Assembly (NCBI GenBank): GCA_902802805.1
Contig: CADCNE010000011.1
Span: forward strand, 1-55,549
Reading direction: 5' to 3'
From: an uncultured Eubacteriales bacterium
GTDB taxonomy: Bacteria; Bacillota; Clostridia; Christensenellales; CAG-138
DNA length: 55,549 nucleotides
Numbering within the stretch: position 1 is the first letter of the stretch; each line of letters opens with the position of its first letter. A program made the translations under genes and the position numbers. Below are positions 29,878-42,066 of this stretch, piece by piece. The notes under the pieces were generated by a model. The model made no database searches. It was not told the origin of the DNA and saw only the letters and a list, made by a program, of their open reading frames with translations.

Positions 29878-30546
29878 TTATCTGTCAGACGGCTGCGCTA
29901 TCCCGAATCCGGCGAGCTCGCTGACCGGCAACGAGAAGGCGATCGCGCCCGCTTTGGTGTCGGGGCCGGCCTGTTCGATGATGGCCTTCATGATGGCGGC
30001 CTTCTGGCTGGCGGCGGACACGATGAGGATGACCTCCTTCTCCGCGGCGATGGAGACCTTGTAGAACTTTTCCGCGTTCTTGCTCCCGGTGCCTAAGCCG
30101 TGGATCACCGTGCCGCCCCGGGCTCCGGCGGAGCGGGCCGCATCCATGACCTGGTCCGTGGCGCCCTGGTTGGCGATGATCATGATGAGCTCGTAATCAT
30201 AGTTGAGGGTGGGCAGGCCCTTTACGTTTTGCCCGTTGGATAAGAATGCCAATGTCTTGCTGCCTCCTACGCTCTTGATGGGGACTGAGACGGTGATGCC
30301 GTTGCCCGGCGCGTCGATGTAGAGCCGTTTTCGCTGTTCCTGGATGAGCTGCTTCGTCTGTTCGGGACTGGCCACGGTTATGAACAGCCGCCGGTCCTTG
30401 GATTCCATGCCCAACAGATCCAACATGCTCTTTGTGGCCGTGCCCCGGCAGGGAATGGAAAGGACGATGGGCAGGCCCATCTCCTCACAGAGCTTTTGCA
30501 TGATGTTGGCCCCCAGAGGGTGGACCACAGAGATCACATAGTTCAT
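29878..30546 (-). CDS. Tandem P-II-like regulator (DUF1538-associated)
   Basis: Two P-II-like halves; VMDAARSAGARGGT, EKEVILIV, GAIAFSLPV. Confidence 0.85.
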   Translation of the reverse strand: MNYVISVVHPLGANIMQKLCEEMGLPIVLSIPCRGTATKSMLDLLGMESKDRRLFITVASPEQTKQLIQEQRKRLYIDAPGNGITVSVPIKSVGGSKTLAFLSNGQNVKGLPTLNYDYELIMIIANQGATDQVMDAARSAGARGGTVIHGLGTGSKNAEKFYKVSIAAEKEVILIVSAASQKAAIMKAIIEQAGPDTKAGAIAFSLPVSELAGFGIAQPSDR

Positions 30547-31992
30547 GCAGCCACCTCCCAAAGCTCAATGATATCCGCTTCGCCGTAGATCTCCGCCCGA
30601 GCTGCACGCCGTCGTTCCTGAATGGCCGCCCGGACGCCCAGCAGCTGGATGGTGATGAGGGGCATCATGGCCACCATGGCTACGATCCCGAAGGCGTCGG
30701 AGAGAACGTTGCCCCCAAGGGCACTGCTGGCGCCGATCATGAACTGCAGCATGAAGGCGGCGGTCATGGGCCCCGAGGCCACGCCGCCGGAGTCAAAGGC
30801 GATGGCAGTGTAGATGTCCGGCACGAAAAAGGAGAGGGCCAGGGAGATGACGTATCCGGGGATCAGGAAGTAGAGCAAAGATAGCCCTGTCAACACCCGC
30901 AGCATGGACACGCCCATAGCGAGGGCGATGGCTACGGACAGGCCCAGCTGGATGGATCTGCCGGAGATAGCCCCGGAGCTCACCTGCTCGATCTGCTTTC
31001 GCAGCACCTGTACCGCCGGCTCCGCGGAGATGATGAACCACCCCAGCAGCATACTGAGCGGCACCATGAAATACCGCAGCGGGCCCTGGGTCAACGCCGT
31101 GCCAAGAACGCTGCCTAACGAGGCGAAGCCCACGTTCACCCCCGTCAAAAACAGCACCAGGCCCAGATACGTGAAACCGACGCCCATCAGGATCTTCCAA
31201 AAGCTCCGCCGATTCATGTGGAAACTGATGATTTGGAACACCAGGAAGATGATCAGGATGGGCAGCAGGGCTATTGCCGTTTCCTTTAGATATTCAGGCA
31301 GAGCAAACAGATACGAATACCCCAGCGCCGTGGTGGTCTCGTGGGCAGTGATAACGGAGGATACAGCGCCCTCTCCCTGGCCGTAAAAGAGGCTCAGCAC
31401 CAGCACCGAAAGGATGGGCCCTACGGAGCAGAGGGAGACCAGGCCGAAGCTGTCGGACTCCGCGTTGCTGTCGCTTCGGATGTGGCTGACGCCCACGCCC
31501 ATGGCCAGGATGGCGCAACACCAGTCCGTAGAGGCCCAGCAGCAGATACCGGAGCTTCACGCCGGTGAGGATGCGGAACATGGCCAGAGCCAAAAACAGC
31601 CCAACGCCTGCGCCTACCACGATGAGCAGCACTACGGTGTCGATGTGGGGCACGGAGTTTGCAAGGACCTGCAGATCCGGTTCGGAGACCGTCACCGCCA
31701 TGCCCAACACGAAACTGACGATCAGGATCAGCGGCAGCTTCCTGGATTTCGTCAGGGTGGAGCCGATCTTGCCGCCGATGGGGCTCATGGAGCTTTCCGC
31801 ACCCACGGTGAACAGGCCCATGCCCGCCACCACGAACAGCGACCCTACCAGGAAGGACAGCATGTGCCCCGTGGGCAGCGGCGTCACGAAAAGACACAGC
31901 AAACACACGATGACCAGGATGGGCAGCACCGAATTGATGCTCTCCTGCACCTTGTCCGCGATCATAGCCTTTTGTTTATTCAACTCGTTCAT
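30543..31992 (-). pseudogene. DUF1538 membrane transporter (two repeats) with internal deletion/frameshift near 31515
   Basis: SEPDLQVLA, DSFGLV, AEPAV, AFDSGGVASGPMT; first-repeat FDSGG segment absent and frame changes at the junction. Confidence 0.85.
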
Positions 31993-32052
31993 GTCAAACA
32001 AAGTATACTATAGCCGAAAGAAAAAGGAAAGATGAGAAAAGCAAGTTTTCTG

Positions 32053-32081
32053 TTGCGTCAAAATGGCCGGCTATGTATAAT
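32053..32081 (+). promoter_or_regulatory. Sigma-A-like promoter of queA
   Basis: TTGCGT-17 nt-TATAAT. Confidence 0.55.
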
Positions 32082-32109
32082 AGGGAGGAATCTGCTGCAG
32101 AGGTGTATT

Positions 32110-33135
32110 TTGAAGACAAGCGACTTTTACTATGACCTGCCCAGGGAGCTGATCGCTCAGACCCCCGCGCCTGTGCGCAGTGAGTCTAGGCTCCTCATAT
32201 ACAATAGAAAGGACAGCTCCATCACGGACGGCGTGTTCACCGACGTGCTGGACTATCTGTGCCCCGGGGACGTGCTGGTGCGCAACAACACCCGGGTCAT
32301 CCCCGCTCGGCTCATCGGCCATCGGCCCGAAACCGGCGGCACCATGGAGTTTTTGCTGCTGAGCCGGTTGGAGGGCGACGAGTGGGAATGTCTCTGCAAG
32401 CCCGCCAAGCGGGCCAAGGTGGGCACGGTCTACGAGGTCACGCCGGAGCTTTCCGTGAAGGTCCTGGGGGACGCCCCAATGGACGGCGGCAAGCGGGTGG
32501 AGCTTCTTTACGACGGCATCTTTGAGGAGGTACTGGACCGGGCGGGGCAGATGCCCCTGCCGCCCTATATCACGGAGCGCCTTGAAGACAAGGAGCGGTA
32601 TCAGACCGTCTACGCCGTGACCCGGGGCAGCGCCGCTGCCCCCACCGCGGGCCTTCACTTCACGAAGGAGCTGCTTGCCGCCATCGAGGCGAAGGGCGTA
32701 AAGATCGTGGACGTATTATTGCACGTGGGCCTTGGCACCTTCCGTCCGGTCAGCGAGGAGAACATCGAGGACCACAAGATGCATCAGGAGTTCTACCGGG
32801 TCACCGAGGCGGCCGCGAAGACCATCAACGACGCCCGGGCCGCCGGGGGCCGGATCGTCTGCGTGGGCACCACCTCTGTTCGTACGTTGGAGAGCGTCGC
32901 CACAGACGACGGCGTGATCCATCCGGGCAGCGGCTACACCGGCATCTACATCACCCCCGGCTATCGTTATAGGGCCGTGGACGCCCTGATCACCAACTTT
33001 CACCTGCCGGAGAGCACCCTCCTCATGCTGGTCTCCGCCTTCGCGGGCCGGGAGGAGGTCCTGCGGGTCTACGAACACGCGGTGAAGGAAAGATACCGGT
33101 TCTTCAGCTTTGGCGACGCGATGCTCATCTCATGA
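32110..33135 (+). CDS. queA: S-adenosylmethionine:tRNA ribosyltransferase-isomerase
   Basis: DFYYDLP..LIAQ, PLPPYI, AAPTAGLHFT, LHVGLGTF, YRFFSFGDAM. Confidence 0.97.
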   Translation: MKTSDFYYDLPRELIAQTPAPVRSESRLLIYNRKDSSITDGVFTDVLDYLCPGDVLVRNNTRVIPARLIGHRPETGGTMEFLLLSRLEGDEWECLCKPAKRAKVGTVYEVTPELSVKVLGDAPMDGGKRVELLYDGIFEEVLDRAGQMPLPPYITERLEDKERYQTVYAVTRGSAAAPTAGLHFTKELLAAIEAKGVKIVDVLLHVGLGTFRPVSEENIEDHKMHQEFYRVTEAAAKTINDARAAGGRIVCVGTTSVRTLESVATDDGVIHPGSGYTGIYITPGYRYRAVDALITNFHLPESTLLMLVSAFAGREEVLRVYEHAVKERYRFFSFGDAMLIS

Positions 33136-33141
33136 AGCCGG

Positions 33142-33894
33142 CTATTGTCGGTCCAGCCGCTGCTTTCCGTAACCCACCACGTCATGGAGCAGGATCTGTT
33201 CCCTGAATCCCTTGGGCGTGACCCACATGGCGCCTTCCTCGTTGACGTGTACGAGCTCGCCGGCTGCCTGCAGCAGTTCGGAGGTGGCAAGGATCTGTCC
33301 GCCCGCGGCGAAGCCCTGTACGCGGGAGGCGAGATTGACGTTGCGGCCGATCATATCATACTTCATCCGGGTCTGGGAGCCGATATTCCCAAGGATCGCC
33401 TCCCCGGTGTGCAGACCGATCCCCATCTCGATGTTCGGGTAATGATGCTCCCGGTTCCATGCGTTCACCGCCGGCATGCGCCTCTGCATGGCGACAGCGC
33501 ATGCCACGGCGTCGCGGGCGGAGAGCTCATTGGGATGCGGCGCGCCGAAGACCGCCACGATCGCGTCGCCGGCAAATTCCAGGATGTTGCCCTGCCAGGC
33601 GTTGATGATCTCGATCATCTCTTCAAAAAAATGATTGAGCATGTTCAGAAAGGATACGGGGTCCATCTCTTCGGAAAGCTGGGTGGAACAGCGCAGATCC
33701 GTGAACATCATGCTCACGATCCTGCGTTCCCCGCCGATCTTCAGGCCGTCTTCGCCGGACATGATTTCTTCAAGCACTTCGTCGGTCAGATAGCGGCCGA
33801 AGGTGTTGCGAATAAAAGCATCTCTGGCAAAGAGAGCCTCTTTCAAATGCACGTTTTCCCTCTGGAGCACTGTGATATCCGAATGATCCATCAT
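33142..33894 (-). CDS. Class III nucleotidyl cyclase (adenylate/guanylate cyclase family), no sensor domain
   Basis: FGRYL, MFTDLRCST, ILEFAGDAIVAVFGAP, GIGLHTG..GNIGS, YDMIGRNVNLASR. Confidence 0.93.
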   Translation of the reverse strand: MMDHSDITVLQRENVHLKEALFARDAFIRNTFGRYLTDEVLEEIMSGEDGLKIGGERRIVSMMFTDLRCSTQLSEEMDPVSFLNMLNHFFEEMIEIINAWQGNILEFAGDAIVAVFGAPHPNELSARDAVACAVAMQRRMPAVNAWNREHHYPNIEMGIGLHTGEAILGNIGSQTRMKYDMIGRNVNLASRVQGFAAGGQILATSELLQAAGELVHVNEEGAMWVTPKGFREQILLHDVVGYGKQRLDRQ

Positions 33895-34688
33895 ATTTCG
33901 ATCTCCTCTCCTTCACGGGCATAGCGGATGCGCTCGCTGTTGAACCGACGTTCCCTGCGCAGAAGCTCCTCGTCGGATGCCTGCGGATCGTGGTGGATCA
34001 GAAGAAGCCGCTTCGCGCCGCAGCGCTCCATGAGCTCAACTCCCTTCTCCGCCGTGGAGTGGCCGAAGCCCTTTTTGGTGATGGAGTCTTTCTCGGTGAA
34101 CTGTCCGTCATAGAGCAGTAGGTCAGCCCCGTCGCAAAACGAGATCAGTTTTGAAAAGAACGGGTCATCCGGTTCACAATCGGTGGCATAGACGAGGCGT
34201 TTGTCCCCATATTTCAGACGAAAGACCAGGCAGCCTCCCGGATGACGGCCTTCGATGCTCTCAACGGTCACATCCCCGATCCGCAGGGTCGGCTTGAGCG
34301 GCTCGAGAAGCAATGTCCCCTTGTACTCTGTGAGAGGGATCGGCCAGAAGGGAGGAGAGAACAGCTGTTGAAGCAGGGCTCGCATCTCATCTTCCGTATC
34401 CGCCCTGAACAGCAACCGGGTGATCGTCCCGTCCTGAGAGAGCCGTGGATACATGCCGAGCCCGATCACGTGATCGAGATGCAGATGGCTGAGCAAAATG
34501 ACCGGCGTTTTTTCAAACCGCGCAGGGGCCGAAACGAGGCCGGTGCCTCCGTCCAGAAAGATGGTCTCCGAGCCTGCCTGCACCATGTAGCACGAGGTGG
34601 CGCCGCCGAACCGGGACCGTTTTGTGTCGCTGACCGGCAGGGAGCCGCGTGCGCCTAAAACGGTCAGGCACATGTTGTGTTCCTTCAT
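33891..34688 (-). CDS. MBL-fold metallohydrolase, putative cyclic nucleotide phosphodiesterase
   Basis: LGARGS..FGGATSC, LDGGTG, SHLHLDH, HPGG, YATDCE, GHST, HHDP; RBS aaggagga; 4-nt overlap with cyclase. Confidence 0.9.
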   Translation of the reverse strand: MKEHNMCLTVLGARGSLPVSDTKRSRFGGATSCYMVQAGSETIFLDGGTGLVSAPARFEKTPVILLSHLHLDHVIGLGMYPRLSQDGTITRLLFRADTEDEMRALLQQLFSPPFWPIPLTEYKGTLLLEPLKPTLRIGDVTVESIEGRHPGGCLVFRLKYGDKRLVYATDCEPDDPFFSKLISFCDGADLLLYDGQFTEKDSITKKGFGHSTAEKGVELMERCGAKRLLLIHHDPQASDEELLRRERRFNSERIRYAREGEEIEI

Positions 34689-34784
34689 CTGCGTCCTCCT
34701 TGCGGTTTACTACTATATTTATACTACCACAGAGGCCGCCGTTTCAACTTTTTTTGTCGCTGTGAAAATCTTTTTCGACGTTTC

Positions 34785-34846
34785 TTGAATAATCCGATCC
34801 TATATGATATTCTATCCATGAACATATATGCACATCGCTGTGTGCA
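34785..34846 (+). promoter_or_regulatory. Promoter and palindrome upstream of cNMP-binding genes
   Basis: TTGAAT-17 nt-TATTCT (34785-34813) then TGCACA-N6-TGTGCA (34829-34846). Confidence 0.5.
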
Positions 34847-34866
34847 GTGGAAATGGAGGATACTAT

Positions 34867-35346
34867 ATGAGCGACACGAAGATCTACCGCCGCAATACCG
34901 TCGTTTTCCGTGAAGGGGATCCGGGCGATTGCATGTATCAGATCGAGACCGGCATGGTGGGGATATATCACGATTACGGCGGCAAGAACGAAACACAGAT
35001 CGCCACTCTCGACAGCGGCAAGGTGTTTGGAGAGATGGGGCTTCTGGATCATGCGCCCCGGTCTGCCACCGTGGTCGTGCTGGAAAAGGACACGATGCTG
35101 ACAAAGATCTCCGAGGAAAGCTTTCTGGCGTTCTTTGAAGAGAATCCTTATGTGATTCTCGACGTCATGCAGCAGATGTGCAATCGACTGCGCATGACGA
35201 CCAAGGCGTATACGGAGGCTTGCCATACGGTGTACGATGCGGTCGAGGCGGAGAAGAGCGGGCAGAAAAAGAGCCCTTCCCTGAAAGAACGCATCCAGGA
35301 GCTTTGCCGAGCCTATCGTGATTTTCGTTTTGATCTATTCTATTAA
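34867..35346 (+). CDS. Stand-alone cyclic nucleotide-binding domain protein 1
   Basis: VFREGDPGDCMYQIETG and phosphate-binding cassette FGEMGLLDHAPRSATV; RBS ggagg; no evident HTH. Confidence 0.92.
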   Translation: MSDTKIYRRNTVVFREGDPGDCMYQIETGMVGIYHDYGGKNETQIATLDSGKVFGEMGLLDHAPRSATVVVLEKDTMLTKISEESFLAFFEENPYVILDVMQQMCNRLRMTTKAYTEACHTVYDAVEAEKSGQKKSPSLKERIQELCRAYRDFRFDLFY

Positions 35347-35363
35347 GTGGGGAGAGCGATACC

Positions 35364-35825
35364 ATGAATACATTGACACTTCATTCCGGTGAGATCATTT
35401 TCCGGCAGAAAGACTTTGCCGAAAGCATGTTCGATATCGTCAGCGGCAAAGTCGGTATCTTCAGCAACTACGGGACCGATACGGAGACTAAGATCACGGA
35501 GCTTGGAGAGGGCCAGACCTTCGGCGAGATGGGCATGATCGAATACTTTCCGAGGTCGGCGACGGCCGTTGCCCTGGAGGAGACCGTTCTGACAGAGATC
35601 AAAGAGGAAGAACTGAAAACGTACTTCCGGGACAAGCCGGAAAAGCTGCTGCGGATCATGAAGCTGCTGAGTCAGCGCATACGCGAAACGAACGAAAAAT
35701 ACATCGCAGTTTGCCGGTCCGTCAGCGAGCATGAGTCGCTGGATACCATGGATCCGGATGCGATGGACGTTGCCTGGATCGAGATGGAACGGTACGCCAT
35801 GGACTATTGGCTCCACTGGCACTGA
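35364..35825 (+). CDS. Stand-alone cyclic nucleotide-binding domain protein 2
   Basis: GEIIFRQKD..MFDIVSGKV and FGEMGMIEYFPRSATA; no evident HTH. Confidence 0.92.
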   Translation: MNTLTLHSGEIIFRQKDFAESMFDIVSGKVGIFSNYGTDTETKITELGEGQTFGEMGMIEYFPRSATAVALEETVLTEIKEEELKTYFRDKPEKLLRIMKLLSQRIRETNEKYIAVCRSVSEHESLDTMDPDAMDVAWIEMERYAMDYWLHWH

Positions 35826-35898
35826 GCTTTTTGAGACCCGGAGGTGGTCGCCGCTCGTTTCGGGGAACGGGCGCTGACCGCGGCTGACGCAAACAAGG

Positions 35899-36002
35899 TT
35901 GCAATTTGATGGTCCCGGCCGTATAATACGGAATAGGCCAGATGGAAACGAAGAACAGGGATCGTGACGGCATGGCTTTCGCATGTGGGCCATGCCGTTT
36001 TT
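35899..36002 (+). promoter_or_regulatory. Promoter followed by terminator-like hairpin in the tgt leader
   Basis: TTGCAA-17 nt-TATAAT (35899-35927); acggcatggc/gccatgccgt stem plus T tract (35967-36002). Confidence 0.55.
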
Positions 36003-36091
36003 GATTGGAAGAAGGGCAAGCGTCCGCCGACAGGGATCGGCGTTTGCCGAGGAACAGGCAGTTGCGTGTCTGTTTGATTGAGAGATCGGAC

Positions 36092-37207
36092 ATGAACGAG
36101 AATTTCAAGTTTGAAGTGCTGCACGTGGACAAGCAGACCGGGGCGCGTCTCGGTCGCCTCCACACCCCCCATGGGGACATCGACACCCCCGTATACATGC
36201 CTGTGGGCACCCAGGCCACGGTGAAGGCCATGACGCCCCGGGACGTGGAGGAGACGGGGGCGTCCATCCTCCTGTCCAACACCTACCACCTGTACCTCAG
36301 GCCCGGCCATCGGCTGGTGGAGCAGGCTGGCGGTTTACACAAGTTTATGCACTGGGACAGGCCCATCCTGACGGACAGCGGCGGCTTCCAGGTCTTCTCC
36401 CTGGCCAAGAAGGGGGATATCCACGAGGACGGCGTGCTGTTTCGCTCCCATATCGACGGCAGCAAGCACCTGTTCACCCCGGAGAGCGTCATGGCTGTGG
36501 AGCAGGCTCTTGGCGCGGACATCGCCATGTGCTTCGACGAGTGCGCCCCCGGCACGGCGGACTATCGCTACGCCGTGAAGGCCATGGATCGGACCCATCG
36601 CTGGGCGGAGCGTTGCCGGGAGGTCCACACCCGCCCCGATCAGGCTCTCTTCGGCATCGTTCAGGGCTGCGTCTACGAGGACCTCAGGATCGAAAGCGCA
36701 AAGACCCTGGCGTCCATGGACTTCCCCGGCTACGGCATCGGGGGCCTCTCCGTGGGCGAGCCCAAGGAAAAGATGTACGAGATGCTGGACGCCATCCGGC
36801 CCTACATGCCCGAGAACAAGCCCCGGTACCTTATGGGCGTGGGCAGCCCCGATTGCCTCATCGAGGGGGTCCTGCGGGGCGTCGATATGTTCGACTGCGT
36901 GCTTCAGACCCGGGCGGCCAGGAACGGCCTGGCCCTCACCCGCAAGGGGCGGATCATGCTCCGCAACCAGACCTACGCCGAGGACTTCTCGCCCATCGAG
37001 GAGGGCTGCGACTGCTACGCCTGCCGCAACTTCTCCCGGGCCTACATCCGCCACCTCATCAAGGCGGAGGAGATCCTCTCCGGCACCCTCATCACCATGC
37101 ACAACATCCGCTTCTCCGTACGGCTCATGGCGGACATCCGCCGGGCCATCGCGGAGGATCGGTTCGGCGACTTTGCCAAAGAGCTGTTGGAGGTCAAGCT
37201 GTTCTGA
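36092..37207 (+). CDS. tgt: tRNA-guanine transglycosylase (preQ1-type)
   Basis: [35 protein letters not shown], zinc CDCYAC. Confidence 0.97.
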
Positions 37208-39359: not shown

Positions 39360-39436
39360 GCGCCTGTAGCTCAGCAGGATAGAGCAACGGCCTTCTAAGC
39401 CGTAGGTCCAGGGTTCGAATCCCTGCAGACGCGCCA
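39360..39436 (+). tRNA. tRNA-Arg(TCT)
   Basis: Anticodon arm ACGGC-CTTCTAA-GCCGT, T-loop, CCA. Confidence 0.93.
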
Positions 39437-39515
39437 AAAGCGCGGCGTTCGCCGGGAGGAGATCGACCGGCGATCGCATGCGTATGCGGGGGAAGTTCAT
39501 CCGAAAAGTTTATAT

Positions 39516-39594
39516 GGTGGGCGTAGTTCAGCCTGGTTAGAATGTCAGATTGTGGCTCTGAAGGTCGTGGGTTCGAATCCCGTCGCCCACCCCA
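39516..39594 (+). tRNA. tRNA-His(GTG)
   Basis: G-1; TCAGA-TTGTGGC-TCTGA; CCA. Confidence 0.95.
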
Positions 39595-39615
39595 TTTTTT
39601 TCGGATGAACATCGG

Positions 39616-39691
39616 TGGGGTGTCGCCAAGCGGTTAAGGCACAAGACTTTGACTCTTGTATGCGCAGGTTCAAATCCCGCCACCCCAGCCA
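39616..39691 (+). tRNA. tRNA-Gln(TTG)
   Basis: CAAGA-CTTTGAC-TCTTG; CCA. Confidence 0.94.
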
Positions 39692-39695
39692 ACCT

Positions 39696-39771
39696 GACCC
39701 GTTAGCTCAGCTGGCAGAGCATTTGACTTTTAATCAAAGGGTCCGGAGTTCGAATCTCCGACGGGTCACCA
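39696..39771 (+). tRNA. tRNA-Lys(TTT)
   Basis: TTTGA-CTTTTAA-TCAAA; CCA. Confidence 0.95.
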
Positions 39772-39783
39772 GCTTCTTGCAGC

Positions 39784-39868
<85 letters not shown>

Positions 39869-39869
39869 G

Positions 39870-39943
39870 GCAGGTATAGTGTAGCGGTAACACATTAGCC
39901 TTCCAAGCTGAGATCACGGGTTCGAGTCCCGTTACCTGCTCCA
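39870..39943 (+). tRNA. tRNA-Gly(TCC)
   Basis: TTAGC-CTTCCAA-GCTGA; CCA. Confidence 0.94.
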
Positions 39944-40010
39944 TTTTTTGCCGCTCCGCCTGCGTGAGATGCCCTGCCGACGGGTCTGAAAAATATTTTT
40001 CGACGACCCA

Positions 40011-40038
40011 TTGACAACCGGCAGATTTTTGTTATAAT
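40011..40038 (+). promoter_or_regulatory. Promoter of tRNA operon 2
   Basis: TTGACA-16 nt-TATAAT with TG extension. Confidence 0.75.
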
Positions 40039-40051
40039 AACCCATGCGCGT

Positions 40052-40127
40052 GCGGGAATAGCTCATTTGGTAGAGCGCAGCCTTGCCAAGGCTGAGGTGG
40101 CGGGTTCGAGCCCCGTTTCCCGCTCCA
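40052..40127 (+). tRNA. tRNA-Gly(GCC)
   Basis: CAGCC-TTGCCAA-GGCTG; CCA. Confidence 0.95.
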
Positions 40128-40131
40128 GTAT

Positions 40132-40208
40132 GCCTCCTTAGCTCAGTTGGCTAGAGCACCTGACTCTTAATCAGGGTGTCCAGGGTTCGAGTCCCTGAGG
40201 GGGTACCA
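40132..40208 (+). tRNA. tRNA-Lys(CTT), island integration site
   Basis: CCTGA-CTCTTAA-TCAGG; CCA; 3' part duplicated at 50017-50056. Confidence 0.94.
40164..40203 (+). repeat. att core, left copy (inside tRNA-Lys)
   Basis: ctcttaatcagggtgtccagggttcgagtccctgaggggg. Confidence 0.93.
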
Positions 40209-40236
40209 AAAAACCACCCAAAATGGGTGGTTTTTT
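40208..40236 (+). terminator. Intrinsic terminator after tRNA-Lys
   Basis: aaaaaaccaccc-aaaat-gggtggtttttt. Confidence 0.8.
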
Positions 40237-40684
40237 CTATTCTCAAGAGATTTTTCAGCGAAAAATCGTCTTTTGGGAATAGATTTACCCCTCTGGGAAG
40301 GCCAAAAACGGTAGCAAAATGGGTAAAAATCCACTTACAGCCTCTTTTTTGGATCTGTCAAAAGAACAACGCGCACGTCTTTTTTCAGTCAAAAAATGAC
40401 GTTTTTCACCTCAAATGAGTGAAAAAAAGCATCTCTCAACGACAGTTCACAAATATTTCACATTTCAGATCCTAAAAGACAAGCGGTTTTCCCATTTAGA
40501 GCTTAGTTAGGTTGGCGCTAAAATAATATATTTTCTCGAACCATAGATGCCTCGTTTAAGAGTTACCTGAGGATCCGATCTGAGTTGTCTGTTTTCAATT
40601 GTCCAAGCTGTCGATAGATAGAAGGAACATGCGGAGAGCAGTAAAGAAAAGATGAATCAAAAAGTGCTCTAAGGAGGAAACAAA

Positions 40685-41893
40685 ATGGAAACAAAAACTA
40701 AACTGGGCGTCCCCTACAAACGCGGGACAGGATATGTGTACTATCTCGGTATCCGTGATGACTCCGGAAGGAAGAAGACTTGGTTTTCTCGAGTCTTCAA
40801 AACGTATGAGGAGGCTCTGGCCGATTCTACCGAGCGGCAGAAATATCTGAAGCAAATACAAGCCCAGACTTCTCCAAATGAAAAACTGAAAAACTATCTG
40901 GATCGATGGTTGCGGGGGAAATACTATTTCACCGTTTCTGTGTCTACGTGGCGTTGTGCGGAATCTCATATCCGTCTTTATATCAATCCTACGATAGGCC
41001 AAACAAAGATGTGCATGCTTACAGACGCGGATGTTGAGAAGGTTATGAAAAAGTGCCAACGTAGCGGGTTATCGGCGTCCAGCACGCGATTTGTTTTTTC
41101 AACGCTCAGAAGTGCGTTGAAACAGGCTGTAAAGGAAAAGATCATCAAATCGAATCCTTGCTCGCTTGTATCTCCGCCGTCCGTGAAACGGGTTCGTCGC
41201 CAACTGATCCCACCGGAAAAGACAGCAGAGTTTCTTGAATTGGCAAAGAAACATGGTATCTATCTGGAGGTGCTGTTCGGAATCAACTTCGGATTGAGGA
41301 GGGGAGAGGTTCTTGGACTTCAGTTCAGGGATTTCGATCTTCAACAGAATCTCCTGACGCCGAAGAGACAAATTGGGTACACGCTGAAGACGAATCAATT
41401 GGACAAGGGGGTTCCTCGCACAGACTGGGGTGTCGTCGACAATCTGAAGACGGATGAAAGCTATGGGCGTGAGCTGGTTATCTCTCCAAAGATAAAGGAG
41501 CTCATCCTGTATCTTAAAGATAAATACGTGGAAGAGGGCGTATGCGAAAAGAAGAACATTGAGAAATGCTTCGTATGCTGCCGGGCTGACGGGACTTTCA
41601 AAAGCCCCAATGTCCTTCGAAAGAGGTTTATGGCTGTTCGTGAGGAAGCTGGGATGCTGAAGCTTCGCTTTCACGATCTCAGGCATACGTTCGCTTCCTA
41701 CATGATCGAGGATGGAATCCCGGTTGCCGTTGTCAGCGCAGCCTTGGGCCACACCTCTATCACGACTACGCTAAACTCTTACTATGACGTGATCAATGGC
41801 GGAAAACAGATCGCTGATCACATGAGCGACAAGCTCTGCGACACGCTTGTCCCAACAGAAGCTGAACTCAAAGCTTCTATTCGAAACAAATAG
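40685..41893 (+). CDS. Tyrosine recombinase / phage-type integrase
   Basis: GLRRGEVLGL, FHDLRHTFAS, LGHTSITTTLNSY (R-H-R-H-Y); RBS aaggagg. Confidence 0.95.
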   Translation: METKTKLGVPYKRGTGYVYYLGIRDDSGRKKTWFSRVFKTYEEALADSTERQKYLKQIQAQTSPNEKLKNYLDRWLRGKYYFTVSVSTWRCAESHIRLYINPTIGQTKMCMLTDADVEKVMKKCQRSGLSASSTRFVFSTLRSALKQAVKEKIIKSNPCSLVSPPSVKRVRRQLIPPEKTAEFLELAKKHGIYLEVLFGINFGLRRGEVLGLQFRDFDLQQNLLTPKRQIGYTLKTNQLDKGVPRTDWGVVDNLKTDESYGRELVISPKIKELILYLKDKYVEEGVCEKKNIEKCFVCCRADGTFKSPNVLRKRFMAVREEAGMLKLRFHDLRHTFASYMIEDGIPVAVVSAALGHTSITTTLNSYYDVINGGKQIADHMSDKLCDTLVPTEAELKASIRNK

Positions 41894-41912
41894 AATCCTC
41901 CATAAACATATC

Positions 41913-41942
41913 AAAGAAGCCTTGGAGACAGGGCTTCTTTTT
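41913..41942 (+). terminator. Intrinsic terminator after integrase
   Basis: aaagaagcct..gggcttcttttt hairpin. Confidence 0.7.
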
Positions 41943-42066
41943 GTAAGGCAAAACATAATGAACGGTCAAAATAAGATGGCATCGCATTTTGGCCGGAATG
42001 GATGGTGAGAATAAACAGAAAAAGAAGCCTGTACGAATAGGCTTCTGTTCAAACGTAGTGATCCGA

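Follow-up and report, generated by a model that had tools for sequence, protein, structure and literature searches.

Cyclic-mononucleotide signalling has been little explored in Clostridia and, more broadly, in gut anaerobes, and the bacterial receptors known so far are mostly transcription factors or effector-fused domains. For the enzymes of such circuits, well-described relatives exist. The CHASE2-linked guanylyl cyclase Cya2 of Synechocystis PCC 6803 is turned into an adenylyl cyclase by the substitution E488K (PMC5995499). The phosphodiesterases (PDEs) YhfI of Bacillus subtilis, Rv1339 of Mycobacterium tuberculosis and CpdA of Corynebacterium glutamicum form an atypical class II with the signature [T/S]HxHxDH (PMC9293780), and a cluster of a CHASE2 cyclase, a phosphodiesterase, FecR and TPR genes was noted in Campylobacterota (PMC9239204). 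Here, we analysed a 55,549-nucleotide stretch of DNA from an uncultured Eubacteriales bacterium (CADCNE010000011.1, assembly GCA_902802805.1; the whole stretch is referred to as the window), in which a block of four genes at positions 33142-35825 lies between queA and tgt. We found that it encodes a class III nucleotide cyclase, a hydrolase with the metallo-beta-lactamase (MBL) fold and two cyclic-nucleotide-binding (CNB) proteins. With a probability of roughly 60%, we consider the block to be a horizontally acquired, self-contained cassette that would make, break and sense a 3',5'-cyclic nucleoside monophosphate (cNMP); its enzyme activities, the nucleotide, a heterodimer of the CNB proteins and a partner acting in trans are all what we infer.

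All four open reading frames (ORFs) are intact. On the minus strand lie the genes of the MBL hydrolase (33891-34688, 265 aa; PF12706, 68.1 bits) and of the cyclase (33142-33894, 250 aa; PF00211, 91.5 bits), and the stop codon of the former and the start codon of the latter share the tetranucleotide ATGA, a 4-nt overlap. Divergently, on the plus strand, follow CNB-A (CNB1; 34867-35346, 159 aa; PF00027, 76.4 bits) and CNB-B (CNB2; 35364-35825, 153 aa; PF00027, 68.4 bits), which are 41% identical across 111 aa (E 2e-31). This is the arrangement given in the initial annotation, made from the letters of the sequence, of four packed genes with a coupled hydrolase and cyclase and two divergent paralogous CNB proteins, and both the ORF and the domain calls agree with it. 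Its further statement that the module has no sensor and no output domain also held, since profile searches with Pfam, NCBIfam and PADLOC found neither, and the same searches revealed no helix-turn-helix and no effector domain in the CNB proteins.

The cyclase consists of a short N-terminal coiled coil, the transducer element FGRY and the catalytic domain. Its score surpasses the PF00211 gathering score of 21.9, which places it among the class III catalytic domains. The closest solved structures are those of Cya2 (2W01, E 1.7e-43) and of its phytochrome fusion (6FHT, E 3.8e-52), and the alignment to the Cya2 structures begins at residue 28 and spans the transducer element. The metal-binding Asp/Asp and the transition-state Asn/Arg residues (FTD, GD and VNLASR) are invariant in nine orthologues. 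In contrast to Cya2, the window cyclase has neither the CHASE2 sensor nor the membrane part, and the Tyr that boosts the guanylyl activity of Cya2 is a Ser. The position of Cya2 Glu488 is also Glu in the window cyclase; among the orthologues it varies between Glu, Asp and Ala and is never Lys. The second specificity position, a Gly in Cya2 and a small residue or Cys in Cya2-type guanylyl cyclases, is Asp in the window cyclase, as it is in ten of the eleven sensor-less sequences tabulated, and the locus L060 alone has the Glu-Gly pair of Cya2.

A search of the full protein library gave 1,986 representatives of 50% clusters at E <= 1e-30. The nearest 150 are mostly 340-1,900 aa long, and five of the ten that were analysed with Pfam have a PAS, receiver or MBL domain preceding the cyclase. 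When the base-specifying pair was read by a motif expression from the best 150 of the 1,986, we obtained Glu-Gly in 91, Glu-Ala in 12, Glu-Asp in eight, Glu-Ser in six and Glu-Thr in three, together with 11 other pairs and 19 unresolved sequences; Lys was not seen in any pair. The window cyclase is thus placed, by its sequence relatives, in a Cya2-like, probably GTP-using group. We favour cGMP as the product at about even odds; cAMP comes next with a distinctly lower chance, followed by a promiscuous activity or another product. A rhizobial cyclase lacking CHASE2 is described as a constitutive producer of cAMP (PMC5498481), which fits a constitutive role for a naturally sensor-less form.

The MBL hydrolase shares with YhfI, Rv1339 and CpdA the PF12706 fold, a similar size and the signature motif, here SHLHLDH. 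This motif and the metal ligands H149, D170, H210 and H232/H233 are invariant in nine orthologues. YhfI is the best solved match by sequence (6KNS, E 2.7e-13, full length), with BA1088 second, and it also ranks first in a Foldseek search (E 1.1e-16, TM 0.76/0.83) with a structure model built from nine sequences (pLDDT 91.2). Other fold matches were BA1088, a PhnP-family diphosphatase, ELAC1, a Brucella protein solved with GMP/AMP, RNase Z and PqqB, and the list also holds phage Apyc1 (ranks 31 and 49) and yeast PDE1 (rank 47). The typical class II PDE family was not indicated, as PF02112 gave no match at E <= 0.01. Apyc1 belongs to the same superfamily and has the same two-metal motif. The window hydrolase, in contrast, is chromosomal and is paired with a cyclase, and with only 54.6 bits (E 1e-14) against the cut-off of 400 for the Apyc1 equivalog NF041851 it is not an Apyc1 equivalog. 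It has been shown that YhfI strongly prefers cAMP and cGMP, while Apyc1 also cleaves cCMP and cUMP (PMC9117128). The identity to YhfI is only 22-25%, and the three known enzymes are encoded by stand-alone genes, whereas the window gene is translationally coupled to that of the cyclase. Taken together, the hydrolase is predicted to be a cNMP phosphodiesterase of the atypical class II type.

Both CNB proteins carry a canonical phosphate-binding cassette, FGEMGLL..PRSATVV in CNB-A, which has no further domain, and FGEMGMIEYFPRSATAV in CNB-B, whose aromatic C-terminal tail is conserved. Across ten sequences, G, E, R, A and T of the cassette do not vary (FGEMG…PRSAT in both), as is expected of canonical receptors. 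The best solved matches are the CNB domains of cGMP- and cAMP-dependent kinases, Epac and CRP; for CNB-A, the top matches are the regulatory domains of the kinases PKG and PKA, whose regulatory subunits likewise bring two CNB domains together. With the CRP/FNR regulators the window proteins share the CNB domain with its dimerisation C-helix, and the CRP model NF008732 matches their CNB part, but they lack the helix-turn-helix and end 30-45 residues past the C-helix. Fused bacterial tandem-CNB proteins are 36-50% identical to the window CNB proteins; in the window, by contrast, the two domains are on separate polypeptides, and no kinase or exporter is encoded nearby. The match to TIGR03896, the tandem-CNB family associated with bacteriocin transport, is weak (E ~2e-4, ~21 bits versus 161), and membership in it is unsupported.

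CNB-B belongs to a family of 306 clusters at E <= 1e-10, mostly 152-158 aa long, with 50-65% identity across 99% of their length. In an alignment of 118 of its sequences, the cassette and the C-helix are strongly conserved and the aromatic tail moderately. In the Atlas, CNB-only clusters with 76-185 members occur in Bacillota. Longer relatives of CNB-B comprise seven tandem-CNB clusters (297-347 aa) and three clusters of CNB-ParB/Srx-like fusions. A class-wide sample searched at E <= 1e-20 gave CNB matches in seven of 399 genomes, the other six all in one genus; at four loci of that genus the proteins are tandem-CNB forms of 301-315 aa, and the three that were scanned contain two PF00027 domains each and no other domain. 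At these four loci tblastn detected neither a cyclase nor an MBL gene, and the annotated neighbours are unrelated. As an observation on the fusions, P0128-P0130 (279-280 aa) join a CNB-B-like domain, 55-59% identical, to the ParB/Srx-like domain PF02195, a possible output domain for the CNB family.

CNB-A and CNB-B are predicted to heterodimerise. The modelled complex had a median score of 0.73, the best of three controls 0.19, with the chosen mark being reached by 58 of 80 solved complexes and by two of 110 mismatched pairs. Agreement between runs covers at least 56% of the contacts, the partner pLDDT is at least 70, and the predicted interface is formed along the C-helices (about residues 100-123) together with the tails; these values apply to the A/B pairing only. 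Besides the window pair, the genome holding the window (G000) has no other CNB domain with the cassette Arg. A third CNB-like protein of this genome (C74:8876-9328, L040:1393-1845) is Crp/Fnr-like, runs off the contig end and lacks this residue. Of the 16 other genomes of the genus, 15 encode one or more Crp/Fnr-sized PF00027 proteins; most of these 15 have no cyclase, and we therefore consider the third protein an unlikely receptor.

Several lines of evidence indicate that the block was acquired. Our comparison set for the genus contained 17 genomes including G000, all of which possess tgt. The insert is 2,957 nt long and takes the place of the last queA codons and a short spacer, so that queA ends with …FGDAMLIS* in G000 versus …FGDACLFE* in relatives with an empty site. 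The initial annotation had proposed a search for such empty sites, and the block is absent from the queA-tgt junction in 15 of the 16 other genomes. At 14 junctions that could be measured, the distance from the queA stop to the tgt ATG is 10-12 nt in ten and 73-91 nt in three, and the fourteenth, in G010, holds an unrelated 536-nt insert encoding a GNAT protein; at the fifteenth, in G009 at a contig end, queA and tgt also abut. Only G015 has the block between queA and tgt as in G000, with proteins that are 95-97% identical. G003 has an empty queA-tgt site and carries copies of all four genes, 51-57% identical, on another contig, where they lie on one strand in the order MBL, cyclase, CNB-A, CNB-B between DUF4364/pcrA/ligA and DUF3783/DAGK. 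Since the tgt of G003 is 97% identical to that of G000, the two module copies represent separate acquisitions.

PF00211 was found in three of the 17 genomes, once in each, and these are exactly the three module carriers; no other class III cyclase was detected when G000 was scanned. PF00027 proteins number three per carrier and zero to two in the other genomes of the genus, where they are Crp/Fnr-sized. The base composition agrees in part with the initial annotation, which had described the block as looking less GC-rich than its flanks. The genome has a GC content of 61.1%; the lower GC is clear for the CNB half (53.1%, 4th percentile of the 1-kb genome windows) and mild for the MBL-cyclase half (58.5%, 19.5th percentile). 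Based on the empty sites in sister genomes, the diverged copy elsewhere, the lower GC and the confinement of class III cyclases to the carriers, horizontal acquisition, as had been proposed, is supported.

The junction itself is a repeated insertion point, because another species holds a GNAT gene there (in G010, L021:2610-3140, encoding a 176-aa acetyltransferase). The use of the queA-tgt site by the module is incidental, and a link to queuosine was rejected, as the G003 copy sits elsewhere and the GNAT gene occupies this site in another species. Selection acts on the block: between G000 and G015, the dN/dS values are 0.07 for the cyclase, 0.13 for the MBL hydrolase, 0.08 for CNB-A and 0.06 for CNB-B at dS 0.22-0.32, pointing to purifying selection on all four genes.

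Related loci show how the unit is conserved. Species-representative genomes scanned with an MBL alignment gave ten loci, and metagenome contigs scanned with a nine-sequence MBL alignment gave 229 relatives, of which 80 were kept. Fifteen distinct loci are close, with an MBL protein at least 48% identical (G000, L028-L036, L057-L060 and L062; L028 is the G015 locus and L034 the G003 locus, each counted once), and their neighbouring genes were identified by tblastn. The cyclase gene adjoins the MBL gene in 11 of the 15, and the 4-nt stop/start overlap recurs in all ten MBL-cyclase loci that were checked (ATGA in nine, GTGA in one). Seven of the close loci have a tandem pair of CNB genes, and orthologues of the window's A-type protein are found in five loci besides its own. 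In every pair an A-type protein is combined with a B-type one, and the two types have different conserved cassettes. The initial annotation had staked its reading on the genes co-occurring elsewhere. They do so: all four stand together in six of the 15 loci, and at L062 the contig ends inside the MBL gene beside the CNB pair. Three gene orders are seen, the divergent one of the window (G000, L028, L062), CNB-A, CNB-B, MBL, cyclase (L031, L033, L036) and MBL, cyclase, CNB-A, CNB-B (L034), and housekeeping genes flank the module at every locus examined. In addition, P0132 from the representative library, a protein of 566 aa, unites in a single chain an MBL domain, a linker in which a 17-residue segment is duplicated, and a cyclase that is 57% identical; this natural fusion argues for a functional coupling of the two enzymes.

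Other close loci carry different neighbours. L029, L032 and L057 have genes for an RsbW-like kinase and a STAS protein immediately upstream of the MBL gene; a GAF-ABC ATPase gene comes after the cyclase in L029 and L032, and in L029 a SpoIIE phosphatase is additionally encoded upstream. In L030 a STAS protein is encoded after the cyclase, and in L058 the MBL gene is immediately followed by a GAF-ABC gene. With the window cyclase, those of the STAS-type loci share 67-69% identity and those of some CNB-type loci only 55-58%, which means that receptor sets have been exchanged around a stable MBL-cyclase core. Judged from gene content, this pair is the conserved core, the CNB pair being one of at least two alternative receptor or regulator sets and STAS/RsbW with GAF-ABC the other. 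Within the group of L029, L032 and L057, we further observed a MatE-HATPase_c_2 fusion and a SpoIIE phosphatase which, with the RsbW-like kinase and the STAS protein, lie upstream of the MBL-cyclase genes; this may represent a partner-switching cascade coupled to the pair that would make and break a cNMP.

In a wider context, an MBL relative (E <= 1e-25) is present in five of 401 genomes and four of 173 genera in an even sample of the order. In three more distant members of the order (G187, G268 and G141, the last checked by tblastn and ORF layout only), the MBL gene shares its operon with genes for a CHASE2-class III cyclase and for a FecR-domain protein, to which G187 adds a GAF-ABC ATPase and an FtsX-like permease, and G268 a GAF/HD protein. 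A megaplasmid of Ensifer carries genes for FecR, TPR and a cyclase together with an overlapping MBL gene, next to those of an NHLP bacteriocin exporter. Clusters of this kind resemble the window block in that a cyclase and an MBL phosphodiesterase stand side by side, with MBL proteins 32-41% identical. They differ in that the window module has no CHASE2, FecR, TPR, GAF-ABC or FtsX genes, whereas their cyclases carry the pair Lys-Thr or Lys-Ser and their loci lack CNB genes. Neither a CHASE2 cyclase nor a true FecR match is present in G000, where the tblastn matches cover the PT repeat only. The window block is thus a pared-down offshoot of the known type of CHASE2-cyclase, PDE and FecR cluster. 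Carriage by phages or plasmids was considered and rejected: no relatives of the module were found in the viral contigs searched, a phage collection yielded two matches at 27% identity (Listeria phages), and the plasmid matches were rhizobial megaplasmid MBL genes at 32-38% identity. A separate observation concerns L047 (G187:C7) and L048 (G141:C39), where the operon encodes a GAF-ABC ATPase, an FtsX-like permease of 1,062 aa that has long coiled coils, the MBL protein, a FecR/PT-repeat protein, the CHASE2 cyclase and an NHL-repeat protein, in what looks like a cNMP-controlled exporter or envelope system.

The family of every part is already known, as are cyclase-phosphodiesterase clusters. A module of cyclase, MBL hydrolase and twin CNB proteins was not found described in the literature that we searched, supplementary tables excluded; related loci might be found in Table S1 of 10.64898/2026.08.12.744502 and in Table S6 of PMC9239204. 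Apparently undescribed are the minimal sensor-less form, the strict translational coupling and the pair of CNB proteins without effector, as well as the repeated horizontal installation in a lineage without any other class III cyclase.

We propose that the sensor-less CHASE2/Cya2-type cyclase would dimerise and make a purine cNMP more or less constitutively, and that the co-translated MBL enzyme of the YhfI/Rv1339/CpdA type would hydrolyse it, so that the cNMP level would be set by the balance of the two enzymes and by transcription from the divergent promoters. A CNB-A/CNB-B heterodimer, held together by C-helices and tails, would bind the nucleotide through its canonical cassettes and relay the signal by binding or releasing a partner encoded elsewhere. 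In this it would be akin to a free regulatory subunit of the cAMP-dependent kinase rather than to a transcription factor. Two candidates for an output in trans were rejected. A GAF-ABC ATPase is absent from G000, where all 65 matches cover the ABC half only, and a tblastn search for a ParB/Srx-like protein gave nothing below E 0.2, in G000 as well as in the fetched loci.

A number of observations weigh against this proposal. The Glu/Asp/Ala-Asp pair of the cyclases fits neither the Lys-Asp rule for adenylyl nor the Glu-Gly/Cys rule for guanylyl cyclases, and the engineered Glu-Asp enzyme Ma1120 K101E is a poor, mixed cyclase (PMC4215837). Synthase and eraser on one coupled message amount to a futile cycle unless they are regulated, and no regulator was identified. 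The cyclase was not found beside the MBL gene in L035, where the full 5-kb flanks were available, nor in L058, L059 and L062, which are all short or cut contigs, and the CNB pair is missing from eight of the 15 close loci. Among the more distant metagenome MBL loci (28-36% identical), 70 of 75 show no cyclase, much of this DNA being short, while five show one in the fetched DNA. The score of the predicted heterodimer may reflect the model's memory of solved CRP-type CNB dimers. Near-identical contigs with 0-4 differences cover parts of the block in four metatranscriptome libraries from four studies, and three of them bridge CNB-A and CNB-B, but contigs from RNA libraries may contain DNA and cannot rank expression. 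Logan contigs indicate presence only, and the lack of coverage over parts of the block, including most of the MBL and cyclase genes in runs X8 and X9, is uninformative.

If the proposal is right, the block is a minimal mobile unit of a synthase, an eraser and two receptors without effector, which has entered one genus at least twice. Should the CNB pair act on a host protein, it would be a new type of receptor and would explain more than 300 clusters that are labelled 'Crp/Fnr regulator' despite having no DNA-binding domain. The strict coupling of cyclase and phosphodiesterase, fusion included, would offer a simple system for studying how a messenger level is set without a sensor domain, and the module makes the role of CNB-only proteins directly testable. 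A more far-reaching version, to which we give a rather low probability, is a plug-in system that installs cNMP signalling from scratch, in which the split tandem-CNB heterodimer clamps a conserved host protein or acts as a guard. As a guard, the CNB pair would fire when a phage enzyme or sponge removes the nucleotide. This would define a new class of CNB-only receptors acting purely by protein-protein contact, with the same CNB domain fused to a ParB/Srx-like domain as related forms.

Other explanations have to be considered. The circuit might be closed, with the CNB heterodimer binding the coiled coil of the cyclase or the MBL enzyme and feeding back on synthesis or breakdown; STAS/RsbW would then play the CNB role at loci without CNB genes, and the output would come from another receptor or from nucleotide turnover itself. 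Such a homeostat would account for a cyclase that retains a coiled coil and FGRY, normally driven by a sensor, yet has no sensor, for the equivalent positions of the CNB pairs and STAS/RsbW beside related MBL-cyclase pairs, and for the lack of an output domain in the module or of a partner found in G000. We nevertheless regard it as unlikely, because a loop without output is hard to maintain under the purifying selection observed, CNB-B belongs to a large stand-alone family, and fused tandem forms occur without cyclase or MBL genes. Of similarly low probability is an MBL protein that is not a cNMP phosphodiesterase and acts instead on an RNA end, a 2',3'-cyclic phosphate or a by-product of the cyclase. 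The NCBIfam RNase Z models score slightly higher than NF041851 (66.6 versus 54.6 bits, all far below their cut-offs), the fold list includes PhnP-type diphosphatases, RNase Z and PqqB, and the majority of the distant relatives are not beside cyclases. Against this stand the first rank of YhfI, shown to hydrolyse cAMP and cGMP (PMC9117128), by both sequence and fold, the signature motif (PMC9293780), the strict coupling to the cyclase in 10/10 loci together with the fusion P0132, and distant relatives in cyclase operons of Clostridia and on the Ensifer plasmid.

The initial annotation had also raised a Pycsar-like role, for which we found no support. Anti-phage defence could take the form of a Pycsar/Pucsar-like system with a cyclase activated by infection, or follow an inverted, Panoptes-like logic: the CNB pair would stay silent as long as a constitutively made cNMP is present, and a response would set in once a phage phosphodiesterase or sponge has depleted this cNMP. 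The combination of a class III-type cyclase with CNB receptor genes is that of Pycsar and Pucsar, and the PADLOC PycC profiles match the cyclase (best E 1.2e-19) and the PycTIR profiles the CNB domains. The latter matches, however, span only positions ~42-147 of effector profiles of 288-306 positions, that is the CNB part, and no TIR, transmembrane, nuclease or other killing domain is present in the module. Its patchy horizontal spread, with five of 401 genomes in the order and two independent gains in one genus, would suit a defence system; cGMP-based defence systems exist according to a preprint (10.64898/2026.08.12.744502), and the decoy-nucleotide logic has a precedent (PMC12657218). On the other hand, the part of that preprint available to us, a comparative survey of cyclases in immunity, names CNB-TIR and 3TM effectors but no counterpart of the block. 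The nearest relatives of the cyclase are physiological, sensor-linked Cya2-like enzymes, the flanks are housekeeping genes throughout, no relatives were found on viral contigs and just two matches, 27% identical, in phages, and a built-in phosphodiesterase would blunt an alarm signal. We therefore consider defence less probable still than the two alternatives above. Least of all do we expect a hitch-hiking or decaying insert without current function. Its foreign composition and incidental site, and the unrelated GNAT gene at the same junction elsewhere, would be in keeping with such an insert, but the four frames are intact and under purifying selection, all catalytic and binding residues are retained, and the unit is conserved across three gene orders. 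A make, break and sense cassette thus remains our preferred reading.

The region between the divergent operons (34689-34866) is AT-richer and includes the ribosome-binding site GGAGGA of CNB-A. The ORF of CNB-A opens at 34828, and the likely start, judged by this site, is 34867. The region should hold the promoters of both operons; a simple promoter scan scored no consensus promoter there, and a search for an operator palindrome gave a single weak one of 11 nt. To the left of the module, queA (32032-33135, plus strand; PF02547 456 bits, NF001140 465 bits) ends 6 nt from the cyclase stop. To the right, the arm of the insert (35826-36091, plus strand) contains a GC-rich hairpin, a near-consensus promoter-like site (TTGCAA-17-TATAAT, 35899-35927) and a terminator-like 13-bp hairpin with a T-run (35966-36005), which lies ~40 nt past the promoter-like site and 87 nt upstream of the tgt ATG. 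The element 35899-36005 is kept in G015 and could specify a small RNA of ~70 nt or be an attenuator replacing the lost queA-tgt coupling; no Rfam match to a riboswitch or other known RNA was found in the tgt leader. The right flank, tgt (36092-37207, plus strand; PF01702 551.7 bits, TIGR00430 528 bits), has an ORF that opens at 36005, and its ATG was placed at 36092 by alignment to the empty sites.

The neighbourhood is of a housekeeping character, with recN, a CDP-alcohol phosphatidyltransferase, a P-II-like protein and two DUF1538 proteins before queA, and tgt, tsaE (named from sequence only), tsaB, rimI and a tRNA cluster downstream of the block. The P-II-like protein (227 aa) and the two DUF1538 membrane proteins are encoded at 29878-32001 on the minus strand, upstream of queA, and these genes are kept across the genus whether the module is present or not. 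As listed, the DUF1538 ORFs share ~200 nt, and one of the two starts is probably later. On a small contig, G000 has a second tgt fragment (G000:C133:2-601, 69% identical), which fits the contamination estimate of 5.8% rather than a paralogue. Further downstream in the window, eight tRNA genes lie at 39360-40205, after which the GC content falls sharply to 39-50% (40000-42000) versus 61% in the genome, and this low-GC stretch beside the tRNA genes may be another foreign segment.

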